The translations under genes and the position numbers were made by a program. Shown here piece by piece: positions 34,135-61,443 of a DNA stretch of 64,000 nucleotides (positions are counted from its first letter, which is position 1; the number at the start of each line of letters is the position of its first letter). Origin of the DNA: Escherichia coli (GTDB lineage Bacteria; Pseudomonadota; Gammaproteobacteria; Enterobacterales; Enterobacteriaceae). The stretch is taken from NCBI RefSeq assembly GCF_041886205.1, contig NZ_CP169029.1. One strand, written 5' to 3'. The notes under the pieces were generated by a model, which saw only the letters and a program-made list of their open reading frames with translations, ran no database searches and was not told the origin of the DNA.

Positions 34135-35028
34135 ATGACGAATTTAAAAGCAGTTATACCGGTAGCAGGTCTTGGGATGCATATGTTGCCTGCCACTAAG
34201 GCGATTCCCAAAGAGATGCTACCGATCGTCGACAAGCCAATGATTCAGTACATTGTTGACGAGATTGTGGCTGCAGGGATCAAAGAAATCCTCCTGGTAA
34301 CTCACGCGTCCAAGAACGCAGTCGAAAACCACTTCGACACCTCTTATGAATTAGAATCTCTCCTTGAACAGCGCGTGAAGCGTCAACTACTGGCGGAAGT
34401 ACAATCTATCTGTCCGCCGGGCGTGACCATTATGAACGTGCGTCAGGGTGAACCTTTAGGTTTAGGCCACTCCATTTTATGTGCGCGACCTGCCATTGGT
34501 GACAATCCATTTGTCGTGGTGCTGCCAGACGTTGTGATCGACGACGCCAGCGCCGACCCGTTGCGTTACAACCTTGCTGCCATGATTGCGCGCTTCAATG
34601 AAACGGGCCGTAGCCAGGTGCTGGCAAAACGTATGCCGGGTGACCTCTCTGAATACTCCGTCATCCAGACCAAAGAACCGCTGGATCGTGAAGGTAAAGT
34701 CAGCCGCATTGTTGAATTTATCGAAAAACCGGATCAGCCGCAGACGCTGGACTCAGACATAATGGCCGTTGGTCGCTATGTGCTTTCTGCCGATATTTGG
34801 CCGGAACTTGAACGCACTCAGCCTGGTGCATGGGGACGTATTCAGCTGACTGATGCCATTGCTGAACTGGCGAAAAAACAGTCCGTTGATGCCATGCTGA
34901 TGACAGGTGACAGCTACGACTGCGGTAAAAAAATGGGTTATATGCAGGCGTTTGTGAAGTATGGACTACGCAACTTGAAAGAAGGGGCGAAGTTCCGCAA
35001 AGGTATCGAGAAGCTGTTAAGCGAATAA
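34135..35028 (+). CDS. galF: UTP-glucose-1-phosphate uridylyltransferase-like regulatory subunit GalF
   Basis: 297-aa [42 protein letters not shown]. Confidence 0.93.
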
Positions 35029-35254
35029 TGAAAATCTGACCGAATGTAACGGTTGATAAGGAAATAATAACGGCAGTGAAAAACTATAGATCAATAAATA
35101 TCACTGCTGTTGAGCGTTTATAATTAACTATGCTACCAATGAATAAATAGTGTGCAGATATGTATTTTTTGTTTGGTAGTCTTGTTTCTCCCTCTGAATA
35201 ATAAGATAATAAACGCTTGGAGATGATTTTTTTAACATGGATTATCATTTCGTA

Positions 35255-35288
35255 CACTGGTAGCGATTAAGCCAGGGGCGGTAGCGTG
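35255..35288 (+). promoter_or_regulatory. JUMPstart/ops element in the O-antigen cluster leader
   Basis: cactggtagcgattaagccaggGGCGGTAGcgtg; ops core at 35277-35284; second copy of the motif seen upstream of wza. Confidence 0.85.
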
Positions 35289-35346
35289 CATAAATTTTAA
35301 TGCTTATCAAAACTATTAGCATTAAAAATATATAAGAAATTCTCAA

Positions 35347-36129
35347 ATGAACAAAGAAACCGTTTCAATAATTATGCCCGTTTACAATGGGGCCAAAACT
35401 ATAATCTCATCAGTAGAATCAATTATACATCAATCTTATCAAGATTTTGTTTTGTATATCATTGACGATTGTAGCACCGATGATACATTTTCATTAATCA
35501 ACAGTCGATACAAAAACAATCAGAAAATAAGAATATTGCGTAACAAGACAAATTTAGGTGTTGCAGAAAGTCGAAATTATGGAATAGAAATGGCCACGGG
35601 GAAATATATTTCTTTTTGTGATGCGGATGATTTGTGGCACGAGAAAAAATTAGAGCGTCAAATCGAAGTGTTAAATAATGAATGTGTAGATGTGGTATGT
35701 TCTAATTATTATGTTATAGATAACAAAAGAAATATTGTTGGCGAAGTTAATGCTCCTCATGTGATAAATTATAGAAAAATGCTCATGAAAAACTACATAG
35801 GGAATTTGACAGGAATCTATAATGCCAACAAATTGGGTAAGTTTTATCAAAAAAAGATTGGTCACGAGGATTATTTGATGTGGCTGGAAATAATTAATAA
35901 AACAAATGGTGCTATTTGTATTCAAGATAATCTGGCGTATTACATGCGTTCAAATAATTCACTATCGGGTAATAAAATTAAAGCTGCAAAATGGACATGG
36001 AGTATATATAGAGAACATTTATATTTGTCCTTTCCAAAAACATTATATTATTTTTTATTATATGCTTCAAATGGAGTCATGAAAAAAATAACACATTCAC
36101 TATTAAGGAGAAAGGAGACTAAAAAGTGA
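35347..36129 (+). CDS. wbdN: O-antigen glycosyltransferase (GT family 2), O157-type WbdN
   Basis: 260-aa AT-rich ORF; SIIMPVYNG...DDCSTDDT...DADD GT-2 motifs; first gene after JUMPstart. Confidence 0.8.
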   Translation: MNKETVSIIMPVYNGAKTIISSVESIIHQSYQDFVLYIIDDCSTDDTFSLINSRYKNNQKIRILRNKTNLGVAESRNYGIEMATGKYISFCDADDLWHEKKLERQIEVLNNECVDVVCSNYYVIDNKRNIVGEVNAPHVINYRKMLMKNYIGNLTGIYNANKLGKFYQKKIGHEDYLMWLEIINKTNGAICIQDNLAYYMRSNNSLSGNKIKAAKWTWSIYREHLYLSFPKTLYYFLLYASNGVMKKITHSLLRRKETKK

Positions 36130-37310
36130 AGTCAGCGGCTAAGTTGATTTTTTTATTCCTATTTACACTTTATAGTCTCCAGTTGTATGGGGTTATCATA
36201 GATGATCGTATAACAAATTTTGATACAAAGGTATTAACTAGTATTATAATTATATTTCAGATTTTTTTTGTTTTATTATTTTATCTAACGATTATAAATG
36301 AAAGAAAACAGCAGAAAAAATTTATCGTGAACTGGGAGCTAAAGTTAATACTCGTTTTCCTTTTTGTGACTATAGAAATTGCTGCTGTAGTTTTATTTCT
36401 TAAAGAAGGTATTCCTATATTTGATGATGATCCAGGGGGGGCTAAACTTAGAATAGCTGAAGGTAATGGACTTTACATTAGATATATTAAGTATTTTGGT
36501 AATATAGTTGTGTTTGCATTAATTATTCTTTATGATGAGCATAAATTCAAACAGAGGACCATCATATTTGTATATTTTACAACGATTGCTTTATTTGGTT
36601 ATCGTTCTGAATTGGTGTTGCTCATTCTTCAATATATATTGATTACCAATATCCTGTCAAAGGATAACCGTAATCCTAAAATAAAAAGAATAATAGGGTA
36701 TTTTTTATTGGTAGGGGTTGTATGCTCGTTGTTTTATCTAAGTTTAGGACAAGACGGAGAACAAAATGACTCATATAATAATATGTTAAGGATAATTAAT
36801 AGGTTAACAATAGAGCAAGTTGAAAGTGTTCCATATGTTGTTTCTGAATCTATTAAGAACGATTTCTTTCCGACACCAGAGTTAGAAAAGGAATTAAAAG
36901 CAATAATAAATAGAATACAGGGAATAAAGCATCAAGACTTATTTTATGGAGAACGGTTACATAAACAAGTATTTGGAGACATGGGAGCAAATTTTTTATC
37001 AGTTACTACGTATGGAGCAGAACTATTAGTTTTTTTTGGTTTTCTCTGTGTATTCATTATCCCTTTAGGGATATATATACCTTTTTATCTTTTAAAGAGA
37101 ATGAAAAAAACCCATAGCTCGATAAACTGCGCATTCTATTCATATATCATTATGATTTTATTGCAATACTTAGTGGCTGGGAATGCATCGGCCTTCTTTT
37201 TTGGTCCTTTTCTCTCCGTATTGATAATGTGTACTCCTCTGATCTTATTGCATGATACGTTAAAGAGATTATCACAAAATGAAAATATCAGTTATAACTG
37301 TGACTTATAA
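36126..37310 (+). CDS. wzy: O-antigen polymerase Wzy (O157-type)
   Basis: 394-aa highly hydrophobic multi-pass ORF, GTG start, low GC. Confidence 0.78.
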   Translation: MKSAAKLIFLFLFTLYSLQLYGVIIDDRITNFDTKVLTSIIIIFQIFFVLLFYLTIINERKQQKKFIVNWELKLILVFLFVTIEIAAVVLFLKEGIPIFDDDPGGAKLRIAEGNGLYIRYIKYFGNIVVFALIILYDEHKFKQRTIIFVYFTTIALFGYRSELVLLILQYILITNILSKDNRNPKIKRIIGYFLLVGVVCSLFYLSLGQDGEQNDSYNNMLRIINRLTIEQVESVPYVVSESIKNDFFPTPELEKELKAIINRIQGIKHQDLFYGERLHKQVFGDMGANFLSVTTYGAELLVFFGFLCVFIIPLGIYIPFYLLKRMKKTHSSINCAFYSYIIMILLQYLVAGNASAFFFGPFLSVLIMCTPLILLHDTLKRLSQNENISYNCDL

Positions 37311-38025
37311 TAATGCTGAAGGGTTAGAAAAAACTTTAAGTAGTTTATCAATTTTAAAAATAAAACCTTTTGAGATTATTATAGTTGATGGCGGCTCTAC
37401 AGATGGAACGAATCGTGTCATTAGTAGATTTACTAGTATGAATATTACACATGTTTATGAAAAAGATGAAGGGATATATGATGCGATGAATAAGGGTCGA
37501 ATGTTGGCCAAAGGCGACTTAATACATTATTTAAACGCCGGCGATAGCGTAATTGGAGATATATATAAAAATATCAAAGAGCCATGTTTGATTAAAGTTG
37601 GCCTTTTCGAAAATGATAAACTTCTGGGATTTTCTTCTATAACCCATTCAAATACAGGGTATTGTCATCAAGGGGTGATTTTCCCAAAGAATCATTCAGA
37701 ATATGATCTAAGGTATAAAATATGTGCTGATTATAAGCTTATTCAAGAGGTGTTTCCTGAAGGGTTAAGATCTCTATCTTTGATTACTTCGGGTTATGTA
37801 AAATATGATATGGGGGGAGTATCTTCAAAAAAAAGAATTTTAAGAGATAAAGAGCTTGCCAAAATTATGTTTGAAAAAAACAAAAAAAACCTTATTAAGT
37901 TTATTCCAATTTCAATAATCAAAATTTTATTCCCTGAACGTTTAAGAAGAGTATTGCGGAAAATGCAATATATTTGTCTAACTTTATTCTTCATGAAGAA
38001 TAGTTCACCATATGATAATGAATAA
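37279..38025 (+). CDS. wbdO: O-antigen glycosyltransferase (GT family 2), O157-type WbdO
   Basis: 248-aa ORF MKISVITVTYNNAEGL...IVDGGSTDGT; paralogous to wcaE. Confidence 0.8.
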   Translation: MKISVITVTYNNAEGLEKTLSSLSILKIKPFEIIIVDGGSTDGTNRVISRFTSMNITHVYEKDEGIYDAMNKGRMLAKGDLIHYLNAGDSVIGDIYKNIKEPCLIKVGLFENDKLLGFSSITHSNTGYCHQGVIFPKNHSEYDLRYKICADYKLIQEVFPEGLRSLSLITSGYVKYDMGGVSSKKRILRDKELAKIMFEKNKKNLIKFIPISIIKILFPERLRRVLRKMQYICLTLFFMKNSSPYDNE

Positions 38026-39403
38026 AATCAAAAAAATACTTAAATTTTGCACTTTAAAAAAATATGATACATCAAGTGCTTTAGGTAGAGAACAGGAAAG
38101 GTACAGGATTATATCCTTGTCTGTTATTTCAAGTTTGATTAGTAAAATACTCTCACTACTTTCTCTTATATTAACTGTAAGTTTAACTTTACCTTATTTA
38201 GGACAAGAGAGATTTGGTGTATGGATGACTATTACCAGTCTTGGTGCTGCTCTGACATTTTTGGACTTAGGTATAGGAAATGCATTAACAAACAGGATCG
38301 CACATTCATTTGCGTGTGGCAAAAATTTAAAGATGAGTCGGCAAATTAGTGGTGGGCTCACTTTGCTGGCTGGATTATCGTTTGTCATAACTGCAATATG
38401 CTATATTACTTCTGGCATGATTGATTGGCAACTAGTAATAAAAGGTATAAACGAGAATGTGTATGCAGAGTTACAACACTCAATTAAAGTCTTTGTAATC
38501 ATATTTGGACTTGGAATTTATTCAAATGGTGTGCAAAAAGTTTATATGGGAATACAAAAAGCCTATATAAGTAATATTGTTAATGCCATATTTATATTGT
38601 TATCTATTATTACTCTAGTAATATCGTCGAAACTACATGCGGGACTACCAGTTTTAATTGTCAGCACTCTTGGTATTCAATACATATCGGGAATCTATTT
38701 AACAATTAATCTTATTATAAAGCGATTAATAAAGTTTACAAAAGTTAACATACATGCTAAAAGAGAAGCTCCATATTTGATATTAAATGGTTTTTTCTTT
38801 TTTATTTTACAGTTAGGCACTCTGGCAACATGGAGTGGTGATAACTTTATAATATCTATAACATTGGGTGTTACTTATGTTGCTGTTTTTAGCATTACAC
38901 AGAGATTATTTCAAATATCTACGGTCCCTCTTACGATTTATAACATCCCGTTATGGGCTGCTTATGCAGATGCTCATGCACGCAATGATACTCAATTTAT
39001 AAAAAAGACGCTCAGAACATCATTGAAAATAGTGGGTATTTTATCATTCTTATTGGCCTTCATATTAGTAGTGTTCGGTAGTGAAGTCGTTAATATTTGG
39101 ACAGAAGGAAAGATTCAGGTACCTCGAACATTCATAATAGCTTATGCTTTATGGTCTGTTATTGATGCTTTTTCGAATACATTTGCAAGCTTTTTAAATG
39201 GTTTGAACATAGTTAAACAACAAATGCTTGCTGTTGTAACATTGATATTGATCGCAATTCCAGCAAAATACATCATAGTTAGCCATTTTGGGTTAACTGT
39301 TATGTTGTACTGCTTCATTTTTATATATATTGTAAATTACTTTATATGGTATAAATGTAGTTTTAAAAAACATATCGATAGACAGTTAAATATAAGAGGA
39401 TGA
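38012..39403 (+). CDS. wzx: O-antigen flippase Wzx (O157-type)
   Basis: 463-aa polytopic membrane ORF. Confidence 0.8.
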   Translation: MIMNKIKKILKFCTLKKYDTSSALGREQERYRIISLSVISSLISKILSLLSLILTVSLTLPYLGQERFGVWMTITSLGAALTFLDLGIGNALTNRIAHSFACGKNLKMSRQISGGLTLLAGLSFVITAICYITSGMIDWQLVIKGINENVYAELQHSIKVFVIIFGLGIYSNGVQKVYMGIQKAYISNIVNAIFILLSIITLVISSKLHAGLPVLIVSTLGIQYISGIYLTINLIIKRLIKFTKVNIHAKREAPYLILNGFFFFILQLGTLATWSGDNFIISITLGVTYVAVFSITQRLFQISTVPLTIYNIPLWAAYADAHARNDTQFIKKTLRTSLKIVGILSFLLAFILVVFGSEVVNIWTEGKIQVPRTFIIAYALWSVIDAFSNTFASFLNGLNIVKQQMLAVVTLILIAIPAKYIIVSHFGLTVMLYCFIFIYIVNYFIWYKCSFKKHIDRQLNIRG

Positions 39404-39405
39404 AA

Positions 39406-40500
39406 ATGAAATATATACCAGTTTACCAACCGTCATTGACAGGAAAAGAAAAAGAATATGTAAATGAATGTCTGGACTCAACGTGGATTTCATCAAAAGG
39501 AAACTATATTCAGAAGTTTGAAAATAAATTTGCGGAACAAAACCATGTGCAATATGCAACTACTGTAAGTAATGGAACGGTTGCTCTTCATTTAGCTTTG
39601 TTAGCGTTAGGTATATCGGAAGGAGATGAAGTTATTGTTCCAACACTGACATATATAGCATCAGTTAATGCTATAAAATACACAGGAGCCACCCCCATTT
39701 TCGTTGATTCAGATAATGAAACTTGGCAAATGTCTGTTAGTGACATAGAACAAAAAATCACTAATAAAACTAAAGCTATTATGTGTGTCCATTTATACGG
39801 ACATCCATGTGATATGGAACAAATTGTAGAACTGGCCAAAAGTAGAAATTTGTTTGTAATTGAAGATTGCGCTGAAGCCTTTGGTTCTAAATATAAAGGT
39901 AAATATGTGGGAACATTTGGAGATATTTCTACTTTTAGCTTTTTTGGAAATAAAACTATTACTACAGGTGAAGGTGGAATGGTTGTCACGAATGACAAAA
40001 CACTTTATGACCGTTGTTTACATTTTAAAGGCCAAGGATTAGCTGTACATAGGCAATATTGGCATGACGTTATAGGCTACAATTATAGGATGACAAATAT
40101 CTGCGCTGCTATAGGATTAGCCCAGTTAGAACAAGCTGATGATTTTATATCACGAAAACGTGAAATTGCTGATATTTATAAAAAAAATATCAACAGTCTT
40201 GTACAAGTCCACAAGGAAAGTAAAGATGTTTTTCACACTTATTGGATGGTCTCAATTCTAACTAGGACCGCAGAGGAAAGAGAGGAATTAAGGAATCACC
40301 TTGCAGATAAACTCATCGAAACAAGGCCAGTTTTTTACCCTGTCCACACGATGCCAATGTACTCGGAAAAATATCAAAAGCACCCTATAGCTGAGGATCT
40401 TGGTTGGCGTGGAATTAATCTACCTAGTTTCCCCAGCCTATCGAATGAGCAAGTTATTTATATTTGTGAATCTATTAACGAATTTTATAGTGATAAATAG
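39406..40500 (+). CDS. per: GDP-perosamine synthase (DegT/aminotransferase family), Per/RfbE
   Basis: ORF 39400-40500; canonical MKYIPVYQPSLTGKEKEYVNECLDSTWISSKG; PLP-dependent sugar aminotransferase fold. Confidence 0.88.
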   Translation: MKYIPVYQPSLTGKEKEYVNECLDSTWISSKGNYIQKFENKFAEQNHVQYATTVSNGTVALHLALLALGISEGDEVIVPTLTYIASVNAIKYTGATPIFVDSDNETWQMSVSDIEQKITNKTKAIMCVHLYGHPCDMEQIVELAKSRNLFVIEDCAEAFGSKYKGKYVGTFGDISTFSFFGNKTITTGEGGMVVTNDKTLYDRCLHFKGQGLAVHRQYWHDVIGYNYRMTNICAAIGLAQLEQADDFISRKREIADIYKKNINSLVQVHKESKDVFHTYWMVSILTRTAEEREELRNHLADKLIETRPVFYPVHTMPMYSEKYQKHPIAEDLGWRGINLPSFPSLSNEQVIYICESINEFYSDK

Positions 40501-40524
40501 CCTAAAATATTGTAAAGGTCATTC

Positions 40525-41739
40525 ATGAAAATTGCGTTGAATTCAGATGGATTTTACGAGTGGGGCGGTGGAATTGATTTTATTAAATATATTCTGTCAA
40601 TATTAGAAACGAAACCAGAAATATGTATCGATATTCTTTTACCGAGAAATGATATACATTCTCTTATAAGAGAAAAAGCATTTCCTTTTAAAAGTATATT
40701 AAAAGCAATTTTAAAGAGGGAAAGGCCTCGATGGATTTCATTAAATAGATTTAATGAGCAATACTATAGAGATGCCTTTACACAAAATAATATAGAGACG
40801 AATCTTACCTTTATTAAAAGTAAGAGCTCTGCCTTTTATTCATATTTTGATAGTAGCGATTGTGATGTTATTCTTCCTTGCATGCGTGTTCCTTCGGGAA
40901 ATTTGAATAAAAAAGCATGGATTGGTTATATTTATGACTTTCAACACTGTTACTATCCTTCATTTTTTAGTAAGCGAGAAATAGATCAAAGGAATGTGTT
41001 TTTTAAATTGATGCTCAATTGCGCTAACAATATTATTGTTAATGCACATTCAGTTATTACCGATGCAAATAAATATGTTGGGAATTATTCTGCAAAACTA
41101 CATTCTCTTCCATTTAGTCCATGCCCTCAATTAAAATGGTTTGCTGATTACTCTGGTAATATTGCCAAATATAATATTGACAAGGATTATTTTATAATTT
41201 GCAATCAATTTTGGAAACATAAAGATCATGCAACTGCTTTTAGGGCATTTAAAATTTATACTGAATATAATCCTGATGTTTATTTAGTATGCACGGGAGC
41301 TACTCAAGATTATCGATTCCCTGGATATTTTAATGAATTGATGGTTTTGGCAAAAAAGCTCGGAATTGAATCGAAAATTAAGATATTAGGGCATATACCT
41401 AAACTTGAACAAATTGAATTAATCAAAAATTGCATTGCTGTAATACAACCAACCTTATTTGAAGGCGGGCCTGGAGGGGGGGTAACATTTGACGCTATTG
41501 CATTAGGGAAAAAAGTTATACTATCTGACATAGATGTCAATAAAGAAGTTAATTGCGGTGATGTATATTTCTTTCAGGCAAAAAACCATTATTCATTAAA
41601 TGACGCGATGGTAAAAGCTGATGAATCTAAAATTTTTTATGAACCTACAACTCTGATAGAATTGGGTCTCAAAAGACGCAATGCGTGTGCAGATTTTCTT
41701 TTAGATGTTGTGAAACAAGAAATTGAATCCCGATCTTAA
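40525..41739 (+). CDS. wbdP: O-antigen glycosyltransferase (GT family 4-like), O157-type WbdP
   Basis: 404-aa AT-rich ORF between per and gmd. Confidence 0.75.
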
Positions 41740-41758
41740 TATATTCAAGAGGTATATA

Positions 41759-42877
41759 ATGACTAAAGTCGCTCTTATTACAGGTGTAACTGGACAAGAT
41801 GGATCTTATCTAGCTGAGTTTTTGCTTGATAAAGGGTATGAAGTTCATGGTATCAAACGCCGAGCCTCATCTTTTAATACAGAACGCATAGACCATATTT
41901 ATCAAGATCCACATGGTTCTAACCCAAATTTTCACTTGCACTATGGAGATCTGACTGATTCATCTAACCTCACTAGAATTCTAAAGGAGGTACAGCCAGA
42001 TGAAGTATATAATTTAGCTGCTATGAGTCACGTAGCAGTTTCTTTTGAGTCTCCAGAATATACAGCCGATGTCGATGCAATTGGTACATTACGTTTACTG
42101 GAAGCAATTCGCTTTTTAGGATTGGAAAACAAAACGCGTTTCTATCAAGCTTCAACCTCAGAATTATATGGACTTGTTCAGGAAATCCCTCAAAAAGAAT
42201 CCACCCCTTTTTATCCTCGTTCCCCTTATGCAGTTGCAAAACTTTACGCATATTGGATCACGGTAAATTATCGAGAGTCATATGGTATTTATGCATGTAA
42301 TGGTATATTGTTCAATCATGAATCTCCACGCCGTGGAGAAACGTTTGTAACAAGGAAAATTACTCGAGGACTTGCAAATATTGCACAAGGCTTGGAATCA
42401 TGTTTGTATTTAGGGAATATGGATTCGTTACGAGATTGGGGACATGCAAAAGATTATGTTAGAATGCAATGGTTGATGTTACAACAGGAGCAACCCGAAG
42501 ATTTTGTGATTGCAACAGGAGTCCAATACTCAGTCCGTCAGTTTGTCGAAATGGCAGCAGCACAACTTGGTATTAAGATGAGCTTTGTTGGTAAAGGAAT
42601 CGAAGAAAAAGGCATTGTAGATTCGGTTGAAGGACAGGATGCTCCAGGTGTGAAACCAGGTGATGTCATTGTTGCTGTTGATCCTCGTTATTTCCGACCA
42701 GCTGAAGTTGATACTTTGCTTGGAGATCCGAGCAAAGCTAATCTCAAACTTGGTTGGAGACCAGAAATTACTCTTGCTGAAATGATTTCTGAAATGGTTG
42801 CCAAAGATCTTGAAGCCGCTAAAAAACATTCTCTTTTAAAATCGCATGGTTTTTCTGTAAGCTTAGCTCTGGAATGA
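41759..42877 (+). CDS. gmd: GDP-mannose 4,6-dehydratase (O-antigen copy)
   Basis: ORF 41723-42877; canonical start [35 protein letters not shown] (372 aa); paralog of 18550-19671 with different codon usage. Confidence 0.9.
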
Positions 42878-42879
42878 TG

Positions 42880-43845
42880 ATGAATAAGCAACGTATTTTT
42901 ATTGCTGGTCACCAAGGAATGGTTGGATCAGCTATTACCCGACGCCTCAAACAACGTGATGATGTTGAGTTGGTTTTGCGTACTCGGGATGAATTGAACT
43001 TGTTGGATAGTAGCGCTGTTTTGGATTTTTTTTCTTCACAGAAAATCGACCAGGTTTATTTGGCAGCAGCAAAAGTCGGAGGTATTTTAGCTAACAGTTC
43101 TTATCCTGCCGATTTTATATATGAGAATATAATGATAGAGGCGAATGTCATTCATGCTGCCCACAAAAATAATGTAAATAAACTGCTTTTCCTCGGTTCG
43201 TCGTGTATTTATCCTAAGTTAGCACACCAACCGATTATGGAAGACGAATTATTACAAGGGAAACTTGAGCCAACAAATGAACCTTATGCTATCGCAAAAA
43301 TTGCAGGTATTAAATTATGTGAATCTTATAACCGTCAGTTTGGGCGTGATTACCGTTCAGTAATGCCAACCAATCTTTATGGTCCAAATGACAATTTTCA
43401 TCCAAGTAATTCTCATGTGATTCCGGCGCTTTTGCGCCGCTTTCATGATGCTGTGGAAAACAATTCTCCGAATGTTGTTGTTTGGGGAAGTGGTACTCCA
43501 AAGCGTGAATTCTTACATGTAGATGATATGGCTTCTGCAAGCATTTATGTCATGGAGATGCCATACGATATATGGCAAAAAAATACTAAAGTAATGTTGT
43601 CTCATATCAATATTGGAACAGGTATTGACTGCACGATTTGTGAGCTTGCGGAAACAATAGCAAAAGTTGTAGGTTATAAAGGGCATATTACGTTCGATAC
43701 AACAAAGCCCGATGGAGCCCCTCGAAAACTACTTGATGTAACGCTTCTTCATCAACTAGGTTGGAATCATAAAATTACCCTTCACAAGGGTCTTGAAAAT
43801 ACATACAACTGGTTTCTTGAAAACCAACTTCAATATCGGGGGTAA
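42880..43845 (+). CDS. fcl: GDP-L-fucose synthase homolog (O-antigen copy; acts as GDP-4-keto-6-deoxymannose reductase/epimerase family)
   Basis: ORF 42874-43845 [19 protein letters not shown]; paralog of 19674-20639. Confidence 0.88.
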
Positions 43846-43847
43846 TA

Positions 43848-44357
43848 ATGTTTTTACATTCCCAAGACTTTGCCACAATTGTAAGGTCTACTCCTCTTAT
43901 TTCTATAGATTTGATTGTGGAAAACGAGTTTGGCGAAATTTTGCTAGGAAAACGAATCAACCGCCCGGCACAGGGCTATTGGTTCGTTCCTGGTGGTAGG
44001 GTGTTGAAAGATGAAAAATTGCAGACAGCCTTTGAACGATTGACAGAAATCGAACTAGGAATTCGTTTGCCTCTCTCTGTGGGTAAGTTTTATGGTATCT
44101 GGCAGCACTTCTACGAAGACAATAGTATGGGGGGAGACTTTTCAACGCATTATATAGTTATAGCATTCCTTCTTAAATTACAACCAAACATTTTGAAATT
44201 ACCGAAGTCACAACATAATGCTTATTGCTGGCTATCGCGAGCAAAGCTGATAAATGATGACGATGTGCATTATAATTGTCGCGCATATTTTAACAATAAA
44301 ACAAATGATGCGATTGGCTTAGATAATAAGGATATAATATGTCTGATGCGCCAATAA
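43848..44357 (+). CDS. wbdQ: GDP-mannose mannosyl hydrolase homolog (Nudix), WbdQ
   Basis: 169-aa [29 protein letters not shown], paralog of gmm. Confidence 0.85.
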
Positions 44358-45787
44358 TTGCTGTAGTTATGGCCGGTGGTACAGGCAGTCGTCTTTGGCC
44401 ACTTTCTCGTGAACTATATCCAAAGCAGTTTTTACAACTCTCTGGTGATAACACCTTGTTACAAACGACTTTGCTACGACTTTCAGGCCTATCATGTCAA
44501 AAACCATTAGTGATAACAAATGAACAGCATCGCTTTGTTGTGGCTGAACAGTTAAGGGAAATAAATAAATTAAATGGTAATATTATTCTAGAACCATGCG
44601 GGCGAAATACTGCACCAGCAATAGCGATATCTGCGTTTCATGCGTTAAAACGTAATCCTCAGGAAGATCCATTGCTTCTAGTTCTTGCGGCAGACCACGT
44701 TATAGCTAAAGAAAGTGTTTTCTGTGATGCTATTAAAAATGCAACTCCCATCGCTAATCAAGGTAAAATTGTAACGTTTGGAATTATACCAGAATATGCT
44801 GAAACTGGTTATGGGTATATTGAGAGAGGTGAACTATCTGTACCGCTTCAAGGGCATGAAAATACTGGTTTTTATTATGTAAATAAGTTTGTTGAAAAGC
44901 CTAATCGTGAAACCGCAGAATTGTATGTGACTTCTGGTAATCACTATTGGAATAGTGGAATATTCATGTTTAAGGCATCTGTTTATCTTGAGGAATTGAG
45001 AAAATTTAGACCTGACATTTACAATGTTTGTGAACAGGTTGCCTCATCCTCATACATTGATCTAGATTTTATTCGATTATCAAAAGAACAATTTCAAGAT
45101 TGTCCTGCTGAATCTATTGATTTTGCTGTAATGGAAAAAACAGAAAAATGTGTTGTATGCCCTGTTGATATTGGTTGGAGTGACGTTGGATCTTGGCAAT
45201 CGTTATGGGACATTAGTCTAAAATCGAAAACAGGAGATGTATGTAAAGGTGATATATTAACCTATGATACTAAGAATAATTATATCTACTCTGAGTCAGC
45301 GTTGGTAGCCGCCATTGGAATTGAAGATATGGTTATCGTGCAAACTAAAGATGCCGTTCTTGTGTCTAAAAAGAGTGATGTACAGCATGTAAAAAAAATA
45401 GTCGAAATGCTTAAATTGCAGCAACGTACAGAGTATATTAGTCATCGTGAAGTTTTCCGACCATGGGGAAAATTTGATTCGATTGACCAAGGTGAGCGAT
45501 ACAAAGTCAAGAAAATTATTGTGAAACCTGGTGAGGGGCTTTCTTTAAGGATGCATCACCATCGTTCTGAACATTGGATCGTGCTTTCTGGTACAGCAAA
45601 AGTAACCCTTGGCGATAAAACTAAACTAGTCACCGCAAATGAATCGATATACATTCCCCTTGGCGCAGCGTATAGTCTTGAGAATCCGGGCATAATCCCT
45701 CTTAATCTTATTGAAGTCAGTTCAGGGGATTATTTGGGAGAGGATGATATTATAAGACAGAAAGAACGTTACAAACATGAAGATTAA
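44339..45787 (+). CDS. manC: Mannose-1-phosphate guanylyltransferase (O-antigen copy)
   Basis: 482-aa [27 protein letters not shown]; paralog of cpsB. Confidence 0.92.
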
Positions 45788-45790
45788 CAT

Positions 45791-47161
45791 ATGAAATCTT
45801 TAACCTGCTTTAAAGCCTATGATATTCGCGGGAAATTAGGCGAAGAACTGAATGAAGATATTGCCTGGCGCATTGGGCGTGCCTATGGCGAATTTCTCAA
45901 ACCGAAAACCATTGTTTTAGGCGGTGATGTCCGCCTCACCAGCGAAACCTTAAAACTGGCGCTGGCGAAAGGTTTACAGGATGCGGGCGTCGATGTGCTG
46001 GATATCGGTATGTCCGGCACCGAAGAGATCTATTTCGCCACGTTCCATCTCGGCGTGGATGGCGGCATTGAAGTTACCGCCAGCCATAATCCGATGGATT
46101 ATAACGGCATGAAACTGGTGCGCGAAGGGGCTCGCCCAATCAGCGGTGATACCGGACTGCGCGACGTCCAGCGTCTGGCAGAAGCCAACGACTTTCCTCC
46201 CGTCGATGAAACCAAACGCGGTCGCTATCAGCAAATCAACCTGCGTGACGCTTACGTTGATCACCTGTTCGGTTATATCAATGTCAAAAACCTCACGCCG
46301 CTCAAGCTGGTGATTAACTCCGGGAATGGCGCAGCGGGTCCGGTGGTGGACGCCATTGAAGCCCGCTTTAAAACCCTCGGCGCGCCCGTGGAATTGATCA
46401 AAGTGCACAACACGCCCGACGGCAATTTCCCCAACGGTATTCCTAATCCGCTGCTGCCTGAATGCCGCGACGACACCCGCAATGCGGTCATCAAACACGG
46501 CGCGGATATGGGCATTGCCTTTGATGGCGATTTTGACCGCTGTTTTCTGTTTGACGAAAAAGGGCAGTTTATCGAGGGCTACTACATTGTCGGCCTGCTG
46601 GCAGAAGCGTTCCTCGAAAAAAATCCCGGCGCGAAGATCATCCACGATCCGCGTCTCTCCTGGAACACCGTTGATGTGGTGACTGCCGCAGGCGGCACCC
46701 CGGTAATGTCGAAAACCGGACACGCCTTTATTAAAGAACGTATGCGCAAGGAAGACGCCATCTACGGTGGCGAAATGAGCGCCCACCATTACTTCCGTGA
46801 TTTCGCTTACTGCGACAGCGGCATGATCCCGTGGCTGCTGGTCGCCGAACTGGTGTGCCTGAAAGGAAAAACGCTGGGCGAACTGGTGCGCGACCGGATG
46901 GCTGCGTTTCCGGCAAGCGGTGAGATCAACAGCAAACTGGCGCAACCCGTTGAGGCGATTAATCGCGTCGAACAGCATTTTAGCCGTGAGGCGCTGGCGG
47001 TGGATCGTACCGATGGCATCAGCATGACCTTTGCCGACTGGCGCTTTAACCTGCGCTCTTCCAACACCGAACCGGTGGTGCGGTTGAATGTGGAATCACG
47101 CGGTGATGTAAAGCTAATGGAAAAGAAAACTAAAGCTCTTCTTAAATTGCTAAGTGAGTGA
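45791..47161 (+). CDS. manB: Phosphomannomutase (O-antigen copy)
   Basis: 456-aa [18 protein letters not shown]; central ~1.1 kb nearly identical in DNA to cpsG. Confidence 0.92.
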
Positions 47162-47379
47162 TTATTTACATTAATCATTAAGCGTATTTAAGATTATATT
47201 AAAGTAATGTTATTGCGGTATATGATGAATATGTGGGCTTTTTTATGTATAACAACTATACCGCAACTTTATCTAGGAAAAGATTAATAGAAATAAAGTT
47301 TTGTACTGACCAATTTGCATTTCACGTCACGATTGAGACGTTCCTTTGCTTAAGACATTTTTTCATCGCTTATGTAATA

Positions 47380-48370
47380 ACAAATGTGCCTTATATAAAA
47401 AGGAGAACAAAATGGAACTTAAAATAATTGAGACAATAGATTTTTATTATCCCTGTTTACGATATTATAGCCAAAGTTGTATCCTGCATCAGTCCTGCAA
47501 TATTTCACGAGTGCTTTGTTAACTGAATACATGTCTGCCATTTTCCAGATGATAACGACGTCATCACAATTGATGGTAAAACACTTCGGCACACTTATGA
47601 CAAGAGTCGTCGCAGAGGAGTGGTTCATGTCATTAGTGTGTTTCAGCAATGCACAGTCTGGTCCTCGGATAGATCAAGACGGATGAGAAACCTAATGCGT
47701 TCACAGTTATTCATGAACTTTCTAAAATGATGGGTATTAAAGGAAAAATAATCATAACTGATGCGATGGCTTGCCAGAAAGATATTGCAGAGAAGATATA
47801 AAAACAGAGATGTGATTATTTATTCGCTGTAAAAGGAAATAAGAGTCGGCTTAATAGAGTCTTTGAGGAGATATTTACGCTGAAAGAATTAAATAATCCA
47901 AAACATAACAGTTACGCAATTAGTGAAAAGAGGCACGGCAGAGACGATGTCCGTCTTCATATTGTTTGAGATGCTCCTGATGAGCTTATTGATTTCACGT
48001 TTGAATGGAAAGGGCTGCAGAATTTATGAATGGCAGTCCACTTTCTCTCAATAATAGCAGAGCAAAAGAAAGAATCCGAAATGACGATCAAATATTATAT
48101 TAGATCTGCTGCTTTAACCGCAGAGAAGTTCGCCACAGTAAATCGAAATCACTGGCGCATGGAGAATAAGTTGCACAGTAGCCTGATGTGGTAATGAATG
48201 AAATCGACTATAATATAAGAAGGCGAGTTGCATTCGAATGATTTTCTAGAATGCGGCACATCGCTACTAATATCTGACAATGATAATGTATTCAAGGCAG
48301 GATTATCATGTAAGATGCGAAAAGCAGTCATGGACAGAAACTTCCTAGCGTCAGGCATTGCAGCGTGCGG
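47380..48370 (+). mobile_element. H-repeat / ISAs1-family transposase remnant (frameshifted, internally deleted)
   Basis: Broken frames spell MELKIIETID..., [91 protein letters not shown]: collinear with H-rpt (ISAs1) transposases but interrupted by stops. Confidence 0.85.
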
Positions 48371-48423
48371 GCTTTCATAATCTTGCATTGGTTTTGATAA
48401 GATATTTCTTTGGAGATGGGAAA

Positions 48424-49089
48424 ATGAATTTGTATGGTATTTTTGGTGCTGGAAGTTATGGTAGAGAAACAATACCCATTCTAAATCAACAAATAAAGCA
48501 AGAATGTGGTTCTGACTATGCTCTGGTTTTTGTGGATGATGTTTTGGCAGGAAAGAAAGTTAATGGTTTTGAAGTGCTTTCAACCAACTGCTTTCTAAAA
48601 GCCCCTTATTTAAAAAAGTATTTTAATGTTGCTATTGCTAATGATAAGATACGACAGAGAGTGTCTGAGTCAATATTATTACACGGGGTTGAACCAATAA
48701 CTATAAAACATCCAAATAGCGTTGTTTATGATCATACTATGATAGGTAGTGGCGCTATTATTTCTCCCTTTGTTACAATATCTACTAATACTCATATAGG
48801 GAGGTTTTTTCATGCAAACATATACTCATACGTTGCACATGATTGTCAAATAGGAGACTATGTTACATTTGCTCCTGGGGCTAAATGTAATGGATATGTT
48901 GTTATTGAAGACAATGCATATATAGGCTCGGGTGCAGTAATTAAGCAGGGTGTTCCTAATCGCCCACTTATTATTGGCGCGGGAGCCATTATAGGTATGG
49001 GGGCTGTTGTCACTAAAAGTGTTCCTGCCGGTATAACTGTGTGCGGAAATCCAGCAAGAGAAATGAAAAGATCGCCAACATCTATTTAA
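48424..49089 (+). CDS. wbdR: Perosamine N-acetyltransferase (hexapeptide-repeat), WbdR
   Basis: ORF 48358-49089; start set at MNLYGIFGAGSYGRE; hexapeptide-repeat acetyltransferase; last gene of the O cluster before gnd. Confidence 0.8.
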   Translation: MNLYGIFGAGSYGRETIPILNQQIKQECGSDYALVFVDDVLAGKKVNGFEVLSTNCFLKAPYLKKYFNVAIANDKIRQRVSESILLHGVEPITIKHPNSVVYDHTMIGSGAIISPFVTISTNTHIGRFFHANIYSYVAHDCQIGDYVTFAPGAKCNGYVVIEDNAYIGSGAVIKQGVPNRPLIIGAGAIIGMGAVVTKSVPAGITVCGNPAREMKRSPTSI

Positions 49090-49289
49090 AGGGAATGCGG
49101 AAACACGTTCCAAATGGGACTAATGTTTAAAATATATATAATTTCGCTAATTTACTAAATTATGGCTTCTTTTTAAGCTATCCTTTACTTAGTTATTACT
49201 GATACAGCATGAAATTTATAATACTCTGATACATTTTTATACGTTATTCAAGCCGCATATCTAGCGGTAACCCCTGACAGGAGTAAACA

Positions 49290-53943: not shown

Positions 53944-54278
53944 ATCCTGATCTCCACGCCCTGTGTTGCCAGGTACGCTTTTAATTCACCAATATTGATT
54001 ATTTGTTTGTGGAATACGGAAGCTGCCAGCGCGCCGTCAACGTCGGCATCACGGAAGGCTTCGAGGAAGTGTTCCATGGTGCCCGCGCCACCGGAGGCAA
54101 TTAGCGGGACGTGGCAAACTTCACGCACTTTTTTCAGTTGTTCGAGGTCGTAACCGTTACGCACGCCGTCCTGATTCATCATGTTGAGGACGATTTCTCC
54201 GGCACCGCGTTTTTGCACTTCCTGTACCCAGTCGAGCGTTTCCCACTGAGTGACGCGGGTGCGGCTTTCATCGCCCAC
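53937..54278 (-). pseudogene. hisF: 3'-terminal 113 codons of hisF (imidazole glycerol phosphate synthase cyclase subunit); 5' half replaced by the anomalous block
   Basis: Translation [74 protein letters not shown]...GVEIRIC matches the HisF C-terminus; upstream in-frame codon is a stop and the preceding sequence no longer encodes HisF. Confidence 0.85.
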
Positions 54279-59475
<5,197 letters not shown>

Positions 59476-60426: not shown

Positions 60427-60463
60427 ATAAAAAAGCCCCCGGAAGGTGATCTTCCGGGGGCTT
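60427..60463 (-). terminator. his attenuator terminator hairpin
   Basis: aaaaagcccccggaaggtgatcttccgggggcttt: GC-rich stem followed on the minus strand by a U-run, between hisL and hisG. Confidence 0.85.
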
Positions 60464-60525
60464 TCTCATGCGTTCATGCACCACTGGAAGATCTGAATGT
60501 CTTCCAGCACACATCGCCTGAAAGA

Positions 60526-60576
60526 CTAGTCAGGATGATGGTGATGATGGTGGTGTTTAAATTGAACGCGTGTCAT
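60526..60576 (-). CDS. hisL: his operon leader peptide (7 consecutive His codons)
   Basis: Reverse complement reads atgacacgcgttcaatttaaacaccaccatcatcaccatcatcctgactag = MTRVQFKHHHHHHHPD*. Confidence 0.95.
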   Translation of the reverse strand: MTRVQFKHHHHHHHPD

Positions 60577-60823
60577 AAAAGTCTCTGTGAATGTTTATTC
60601 AACTGATGTCTTTTAACCTAAACCACTTTCACGTTAGAAAGCAAGGGCTTTTTTATATATTTTATGGCGATGGATTTGTTTAATGAATGAGCGGGGAAAG
60701 GAGGGGGCTAAGAGGACTGTCCTCTAAGCTGACGGCACCAAAAATAGCGAAGCCTGGATTTTCGTCTCACTGACAATACCTTGATCTACAAACTAATTAA
60801 TAAATAGTTAATTAACGCCCATC

Positions 60824-60845
60824 ATTGTACAATGAACTGTACAAA
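60824..60845. promoter_or_regulatory. yefM-yoeB operator (TGTACA palindromes) overlapping the promoter
   Basis: attgtacaatgaactgtacaaa with two TGTACA half-sites spaced as in the YefM-YoeB autoregulatory site, 14 bp upstream of the yefM ATG. Confidence 0.7.
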
Positions 60846-60858
60846 AGAGGAGATTGAC

Positions 60859-61110
60859 ATGCGTACAATTAGCTACAGCGAAGCGCGTCAGAATTTGTCG
60901 GCAACAATGATGAAAGCCGTTGAAGATCATGCCCCGATCCTTATTACTCGTCAGAATGGAGAGGCTTGTGTTCTGATGTCACTCGAAGAATACAACTCCC
61001 TGGAGGAGACGGCTTATCTACTGCGTTCCCCCGCTAACGCCCGGAGATTGATGGACTCAATCGATAGCCTGAAATCTGGCAAAGGAACGGAAAAGGACAT
61101 CATTGAGTGA
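60859..61110 (+). CDS. yefM: Antitoxin YefM
   Basis: ORF 60832-61110; canonical start [50 protein letters not shown] (83 aa). Confidence 0.93.
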
Positions 61111-61361
61111 AACTAATCTGGTCTGAGGAATCATGGGACGATTATCTGTACTGGCAGGAAACAGATAAGCGAATTGTTAAAAAGATCAATGAACTTATCA
61201 AAGATACCCGCAGAACGCCATTTGAAGGTAAGGGGAAGCCAGAACCCCTGAAACATAATTTGTCAGGTTTCTGGTCCCGACGCATTACAGAGGAGCACCG
61301 TCTGGTATACGCGGTTACCGACGATTCACTGCTCATTGCAGCATGTCGTTATCATTATTGA
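61107..61361 (+). CDS. yoeB: Toxin YoeB (ribosome-dependent mRNA interferase)
   Basis: 84-aa ORF (GTG start overlapping yefM stop) [67 protein letters not shown]. Confidence 0.93.
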
Positions 61362-61443
61362 ACAGATTCATTCATAGAATGAATTGTCAGTTTTGATACG
61401 CTAGCGTAGCCTTATAGATCTAAGGTGTATCAGGAGATAACGG

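Follow-up and report, generated by a model that had tools for sequence, protein, structure and literature searches.

The yefM-yoeB toxin-antitoxin locus between hisL and yeeZ in an Escherichia coli chromosome

Features of the locus

In the 64-kb stretch of E. coli DNA analyzed here (hereafter, the window), a short region next to the his leader contains two small genes preceded by palindromic repeats, for which the following features were assigned.

60427-60550, minus strand: his leader RNA (Rfam RF00514, 131.6 bits against a gathering score of 49)
60526-60576, minus strand: hisL leader peptide (RefSeq annotation of an identical locus)
60715-61366, plus strand: presence/absence cassette of 652 bp comprising promoter, operator, yefM and yoeB (aligned against genomes without the pair)
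60805-60810, plus strand: -35 box TAGTTA, identical to K-12 (sequence and the K-12 promoter of PMC7730913)
60822-60835, no strand: long (L) operator palindrome TCATTGTACAATGA, perfect over 14 bp (script; same sequence as the K-12 footprint)
60828-60833, plus strand: -10 box TACAAT, within the L palindrome (PMC7730913 and sequence)
60838-60843, no strand: short (S) operator palindrome TGTACA, containing the transcription start (motif search)
60847-60852, plus strand: ribosome-binding site GAGGAG, 6 nt 5' of the yefM ATG (sequence; spacing according to PMC1802561)
60859-61110 including the stop codon, plus strand: yefM, antitoxin and autorepressor of the Phd/YefM family, 83 aa (PF02604, NF008499 and identity to PDB 2a6q_A)
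61107-61361 including the stop codon, plus strand: yoeB, toxin, a ribosome-dependent mRNA endoribonuclease, 84 aa, GTG start (PF06769, TIGR02116 and identity to 2a6q_E)

As in type II toxin-antitoxin (TA) operons, the genes are small, adjacent and co-oriented, the antitoxin gene comes first and overlaps the toxin gene, and a single promoter lies upstream of both. The overlapping stop and start codons reported in the preliminary description are present: the GTG of yoeB (61107-61109) lies over the TGA of yefM (61108-61110) in the sequence ATTGAGTGAAAC, giving an overlap of 4 nt (GTGA, 61107-61110). The span given there for the whole feature, 60824-61361, ends exactly at the yoeB stop codon, but its first position cuts 2 bp off the long palindrome, and the -35 box lies outside it.

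The same description placed the pair next to the his leader, and both the Rfam match and the hisL gene on the minus strand agree with this position. hisL and yefM are divergent, with 282 bp between their start codons, and yefM-yoeB is followed by yeeZ and yeeY. A 1041-bp query covering the locus matched 5423 of 5426 complete E. coli genomes, and the RefSeq features under the match were yefM, yoeB, the His leader, hisL and yeeZ. The coordinates of yefM and yoeB coincide with the RefSeq annotation of a strain with 100% identity across the locus, and strain NT1N31 is identical to the window across 1,281 bp. Colinearity of the whole window with NT1N31 was considered and rejected, since BLAST showed that the O-antigen clusters differ and that part of the his operon is degraded in the window (see below). 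In colinear relatives, the annotated genes comprise dgcE, udk, dcd, asmA, yegH, the colanic-acid cluster, an O157 O-antigen cluster with an ISAs1 remnant, gnd, ugd, wzzB, the his operon, yeeZ, yeeY, yoeI and plaP.

Identity of the yefM-yoeB pair

Profile searches assigned both proteins to their families at scores far above the respective cut-offs. YefM matched PF02604 (Phd/YefM) with 96.8 bits (cut-off 29.8, E = 6.1e-28) and the NCBIfam equivalog NF008499 with 186.6 bits (cut-off 121, E = 5.6e-56) over positions 1-83 of 83. YoeB matched PF06769 with 146.3 bits (cut-off 27, E = 2.8e-43) over profile positions 1-80 of 80, and the equivalog TIGR02116 with 132.8 bits (cut-off 51.8, E = 3.8e-39). 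The Pfam search for the YoeB and YefM families proposed with the preliminary description thus returned both of them, and the lack of a family match, which had been named as the refuting outcome, was not observed.

Over its full length, each protein is 100% identical to a chain of an E. coli K-12 structure, YefM to PDB 2A6Q chain A and YoeB to 2A6Q chain E; the ribosome complexes 4V8X and 6OXA contain the same YoeB sequence. Of the residues with a catalytic or substrate-binding role in YoeB (PMC3814384), all of Glu46, Arg59, Glu63, Arg65, His83 and Tyr84 are found in the translation, and neither gene contains a frameshift or an internal stop. The family matches and the identity to 2A6Q bear out the classification of the genes as a standard type II TA pair. 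Judging from the sequence, the pair is almost certainly the chromosomal E. coli yefM-yoeB type II TA operon, intact and at its usual site between hisL and yeeZ. That the locus had been described as known and not novel is likewise correct: the proteins are the K-12 chains and the operator is the published one, and the locus, its operator and its proteins represent no new biology.

Operator and promoter

A TGTACA-repeat operator had been proposed for the pair. We found TGTACA at 60826-60831 and 60838-60843, in a base-for-base match to the published operator. Single copies of this hexamer are uninformative in number, as 13 were found in the 64-kb window against 12.7 expected. The paired form with a 6-bp gap occurred once in 64 kb against 0.08 expected, one mismatch being allowed. 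According to the L/S operator criteria of Kedzierska et al. 2007 (PMC1802561), the site has paired TGTACA cores spaced 12 bp from centre to centre, lies no more than 80 bp from the yefM ATG, and has an extended 5' copy. In K-12, the L repeat TCATTGTACAATGA corresponds to the YefM DNase I footprint and is the primary binding site, and S is the TGTACA repeat (PMC1802561).

We positioned the promoter by reference to its published mapping in K-12. K-12 has the -10 box TAcAAT and the -35 box TaGttA separated by a 17-bp spacer, and L fully covers the -10 box (PMC7730913). The in vivo start site in K-12 places the yefM ATG at +21, with a ribosome-binding site spacing of 6 bp (PMC1802561); +1 in the window should therefore be G 60839 (60859 - 20), a position consistent with the G start reported for K-12 and with the location of the S repeat around the start site (PMC7730913). 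By sequence, the operator overlaps the -10 box and the start site in the same geometry as in K-12, to which it is identical. With +1 at this G, an upstream ATG (60832) that opens a longer reading frame falls at -7 and would not be used. According to PMC1802561 this longer frame is unused, and the yefM ATG is at 60859. A generic sigma-70 promoter scan missed the yefM-yoeB promoter because its -35 box fits the consensus at only three of six bases.

A third stretch containing GTACAAT, GTACAATTAGCT, was noticed at 60863-60874 within yefM codons 2-5. It lies 36 bp downstream of GTACAATGAACT in the L repeat, and the two are identical at 10 of 12 bases. This similarity may be due to chance or coding constraint, and the stretch is not part of the operator as described for K-12 (PMC1802561).

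On the plus strand 3' of yoeB, a scan for intrinsic terminators called none. An AT-rich hairpin, ATTCATTC-ATA-GAATGAAT (61366-61384; -9.6 kcal/mol in context), is present between the yoeB stop codon and yeeZ. It belongs to the conserved flank outside the cassette, is also found in genomes without the cassette, and is at best a weak terminator candidate.

Comparison with related toxin-antitoxin systems

The closest known system is the locus of K-12 MG1655 (yefM, b2017; yoeB, b4539), which has the same proteins, operator, promoter, ribosome-binding site, GTGA overlap and genomic position. Eight substitutions distinguish it from the window in 881 bp. Four fall in intergenic DNA 5' of yefM, outside promoter and operator, and four in yefM itself, all of these synonymous; yoeB is unchanged. 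One of the intergenic changes weakens an inverted repeat in the window (60707-60729; see below). The two strains also differ in their O-antigen clusters, O157 in the window strain and O16 in K-12.

Axe-Txe of the Enterococcus faecium plasmid pRUM likewise consists of a homologous Phd/YefM antitoxin and a YoeB/Txe toxin, and, as in the window, it has two TGTACA cores with a spacing of 12 bp and TACAAT as its -10 box (PMC7730913). However, its L repeat lies in the spacer between the -35 and -10 boxes, its repression is weaker, its -35 box (TTGctt) is stronger, and it is plasmid-borne (PMC7730913). With L over the -10 box and S over the start site, the window has the K-12 arrangement and not that of Axe-Txe.

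The RelE toxin of RelBE resembles YoeB in cleaving mRNA in the A site and in having the same superfamily fold, and weak matches of YoeB to RelE/StbE, YafQ and ParE models were observed in the profile search. Unlike RelE, YoeB has a complete Glu/His RNase pair, shows weak ribosome-independent activity and contacts both ribosomal subunits (PMC3814384). The antitoxins differ as well, since YefM has the Phd/YefM fold, unlike RelB.

Another chromosomal type II TA cassette in an intergenic site is ccd, located between folA and apaH, where other lineages have a REP sequence instead (PMC7167474). It differs from yefM-yoeB in its locus and in its toxin, CcdB being a gyrase poison. The lineage patterns of the two are reversed, in that O157:H7 carries ccdO157 (PMC7167474) and lacks yefM-yoeB.

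Predicted mode of action

The mechanism in the window strain is presumably that established for K-12, which we infer from the identical proteins and operator. One promoter (-35 TAGTTA, 17-bp spacer, -10 TACAAT, start at G 60839) would serve both genes, and the 4-nt GTGA overlap makes translational coupling likely, by which the antitoxin would be made together with the toxin. A YefM dimer would bind one YoeB and lock its RNase site in an inactive conformation. YefM is also expected to occupy first the long palindrome over the -10 box and afterwards the short palindrome at the start site, with YoeB acting as a co-repressor that strengthens binding, so that RNA polymerase would be excluded and the operon would repress itself. 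In K-12, repression is primarily due to YefM and is enhanced by YoeB (PMC1802561); it operates by steric exclusion of RNA polymerase (PMC7730913).

Once Lon has degraded YefM, free YoeB would enter the ribosomal A site and cut the mRNA, and translation would stop. For the identical K-12 YoeB, both A-site cleavage and the relief of toxicity by the cognate antitoxin have been shown experimentally (PMC3814384, PMC4554461). At the 70S A site, the mRNA is cut after the second codon base; Glu46 serves as the general base and His83 as the general acid, and Arg65 and Tyr84 stabilize the transition state (PMC3814384). YefM is labile in K-12, being a Lon substrate, and the toxin is stable (PMC4554461, PMC7167474). 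YoeB was activated by Lon overproduction and, in a Lon-dependent manner, at 42 C (PMC4554461, PMC7167474); the latter is reported to have caused neither growth inhibition nor a fitness effect (PMC7167474).

Distribution and origin of the cassette

Of the 5426 complete E. coli genomes, 4217 carry the cassette; its location is chromosomal in every case and the site does not vary, with 97-100% sequence identity across phylogroups. Whether a genome has the cassette between hisL and yeeZ can serve as a convenient lineage marker. Alignment to O157:H7 G5295 and strain Yu5, both of which lack the pair, put the breakpoints after 60714 and before 61367. In the genomes without the pair, including O157:H7, hisL and yeeZ are still adjacent and the interval between them is shorter. 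The 652-bp cassette is replaced in this empty allele by approximately 210 bp (596-810 of the G5295 locus; also in Yu5) with the REP-like sequence GCCGGATGCGGCGTGAATGCCTTATCTGGTCTACA, a REP/BIME-like palindromic unit between hisL and yeeZ. We assign this filler to REP by its resemblance to the E. coli REP consensus. The GC content of the cassette is 44.5%, compared with 52-54% for the flanking hisG and yeeZ. Low GC content and the insertion/deletion pattern both fit chromosomal TA pairs as horizontally acquired cassettes in plastic intergenic sites.

One explanation of why the cassette exists, to which we give a weight approaching even, is that it is mainly a selfish, horizontally acquired addiction cassette without a dedicated host function, which is costly to lose or protects the host against related plasmid toxins such as that of Axe-Txe. 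This explanation is compatible with autorepression and the A-site mechanism. It is favored by the patchy occurrence at one chromosomal site, by the sharp ends of the 652-bp indel and the REP-like filler of the empty allele, by the low GC content, by the same alternation of TA cassette and REP at the folA-apaH site of ccd (PMC7167474), and by the heat activation of the toxin without a reported fitness effect (PMC7167474). On the other hand, the 97-100% conservation, the intact reading frames and the retention of all catalytic residues argue for selection on function, an argument that is weakened in that addiction alone could explain the conservation.

Relation to phage defence

The preliminary description had also called the pair the only defence-like module in the window. 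The word only agrees with the annotation of the colinear relatives, which includes no defence genes, but defence-like is too loose, as a scan of YefM and YoeB against the 5027 models of PADLOC-DB gave no match at E <= 0.01. The setting is not that of a defence island or mobile element either: the pair is bordered by housekeeping genes, with hisL-hisG to one side and yeeZ-yeeY to the other, and no integrase, transposase or defence gene is found beside the pair in annotated colinear relatives.

Abortive infection, in which shut-off by a phage would deplete the labile YefM and the freed YoeB would halt translation, has precedents. This mode of action has been demonstrated or suggested for other TA systems of types II, III and IV, for example rnlAB, lsoAB and mazEF (PMC7167474), and RNases of the RelE/ParE superfamily occur in candidate defence loci (PMC11980606). 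Such a role is nevertheless improbable here, considering that neither protein matches any PADLOC-DB model, that the neighbors are his genes, an SDR oxidoreductase and a LysR regulator rather than a defence island or mobile element, and that the literature consulted contains no report of phage protection by E. coli yefM-yoeB. The evidence is more in keeping with a self-maintaining cassette gained by horizontal transfer than with a dedicated defence system, and yefM-yoeB should not be labelled as defence without supporting phage data.

Two arms of 11 bp separated by 1 nt, GCTAAGAGGAC/GTCCTCTAAGC, form an inverted repeat at 60707-60729; the arms are 91% complementary in the window and perfectly so in K-12. 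The repeat straddles the left breakpoint, the left arm being mostly shared flank and the right arm cassette-specific DNA, and it folds at -15 kcal/mol in context, with no T-run on either strand. It might be the mark of a mechanism of insertion by which REP elements are exchanged for TA cassettes. It might also be that the divergent yefM and his promoters are coupled, through supercoiling or shared upstream DNA, in such a way that the release of YoeB is tied to amino-acid supply. Taken jointly, a position-tied role, an undetected abortive-infection module and the repeat as an insertion mark are very improbable, and nothing in the sequence requires any of them.

The idea that the feature is not real or functional, being made of chance reading frames and palindromes or a decayed remnant, is of negligible probability, and nothing was found in its favor beyond the chance frequency of single TGTACA motifs in the window. 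It is already refuted by the family matches, by full-length proteins identical to solved structures, by reading frames free of frameshifts and internal stops, and by a paired motif that is unique in the window and coincides precisely with the -10 box and the start site.

Other observations in the window

Between 54276 and 57475, the 5' part of hisF, hisA, hisH, hisB and the 3' end of hisC are represented by a colinear, heavily degraded copy of nearly the same length. Within 54276-56650 (2375 bp, compared with 2429 bp for the expected genes), there was no BLAST-detectable similarity to the expected hisF-hisA-hisH-hisB and no ORF of at least 150 aa. A global alignment of this part to the expected his genes had a score of 281 against -183 +/- 14 for shuffled sequences, and its gapped identity was 61% against 52% for the shuffled controls. 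The remaining part, 56651-57475, is approximately 77% identical, with 98 insertions, 30 deletions and 82 substitutions. The boundaries of the segment are sharp and its flanks are 99.9-100% identical. Among complete E. coli genomes, none carries this version of 54276-57475. The segment is probably an uncorrected error-prone long read or another corrupted patch, and not biology; it does not touch the TA locus.

An O157-type O-antigen cluster occupies 35024-49270, with rfbE/perA, the O157 wzx, wzy, perB and an ISAs1 remnant, and is 99.7% identical to that of an O157:H16 strain. Since the O157 cluster occurs here together with yefM-yoeB, and O157:H7 genomes lack the pair, the background of the window is a non-H7 O157 lineage.
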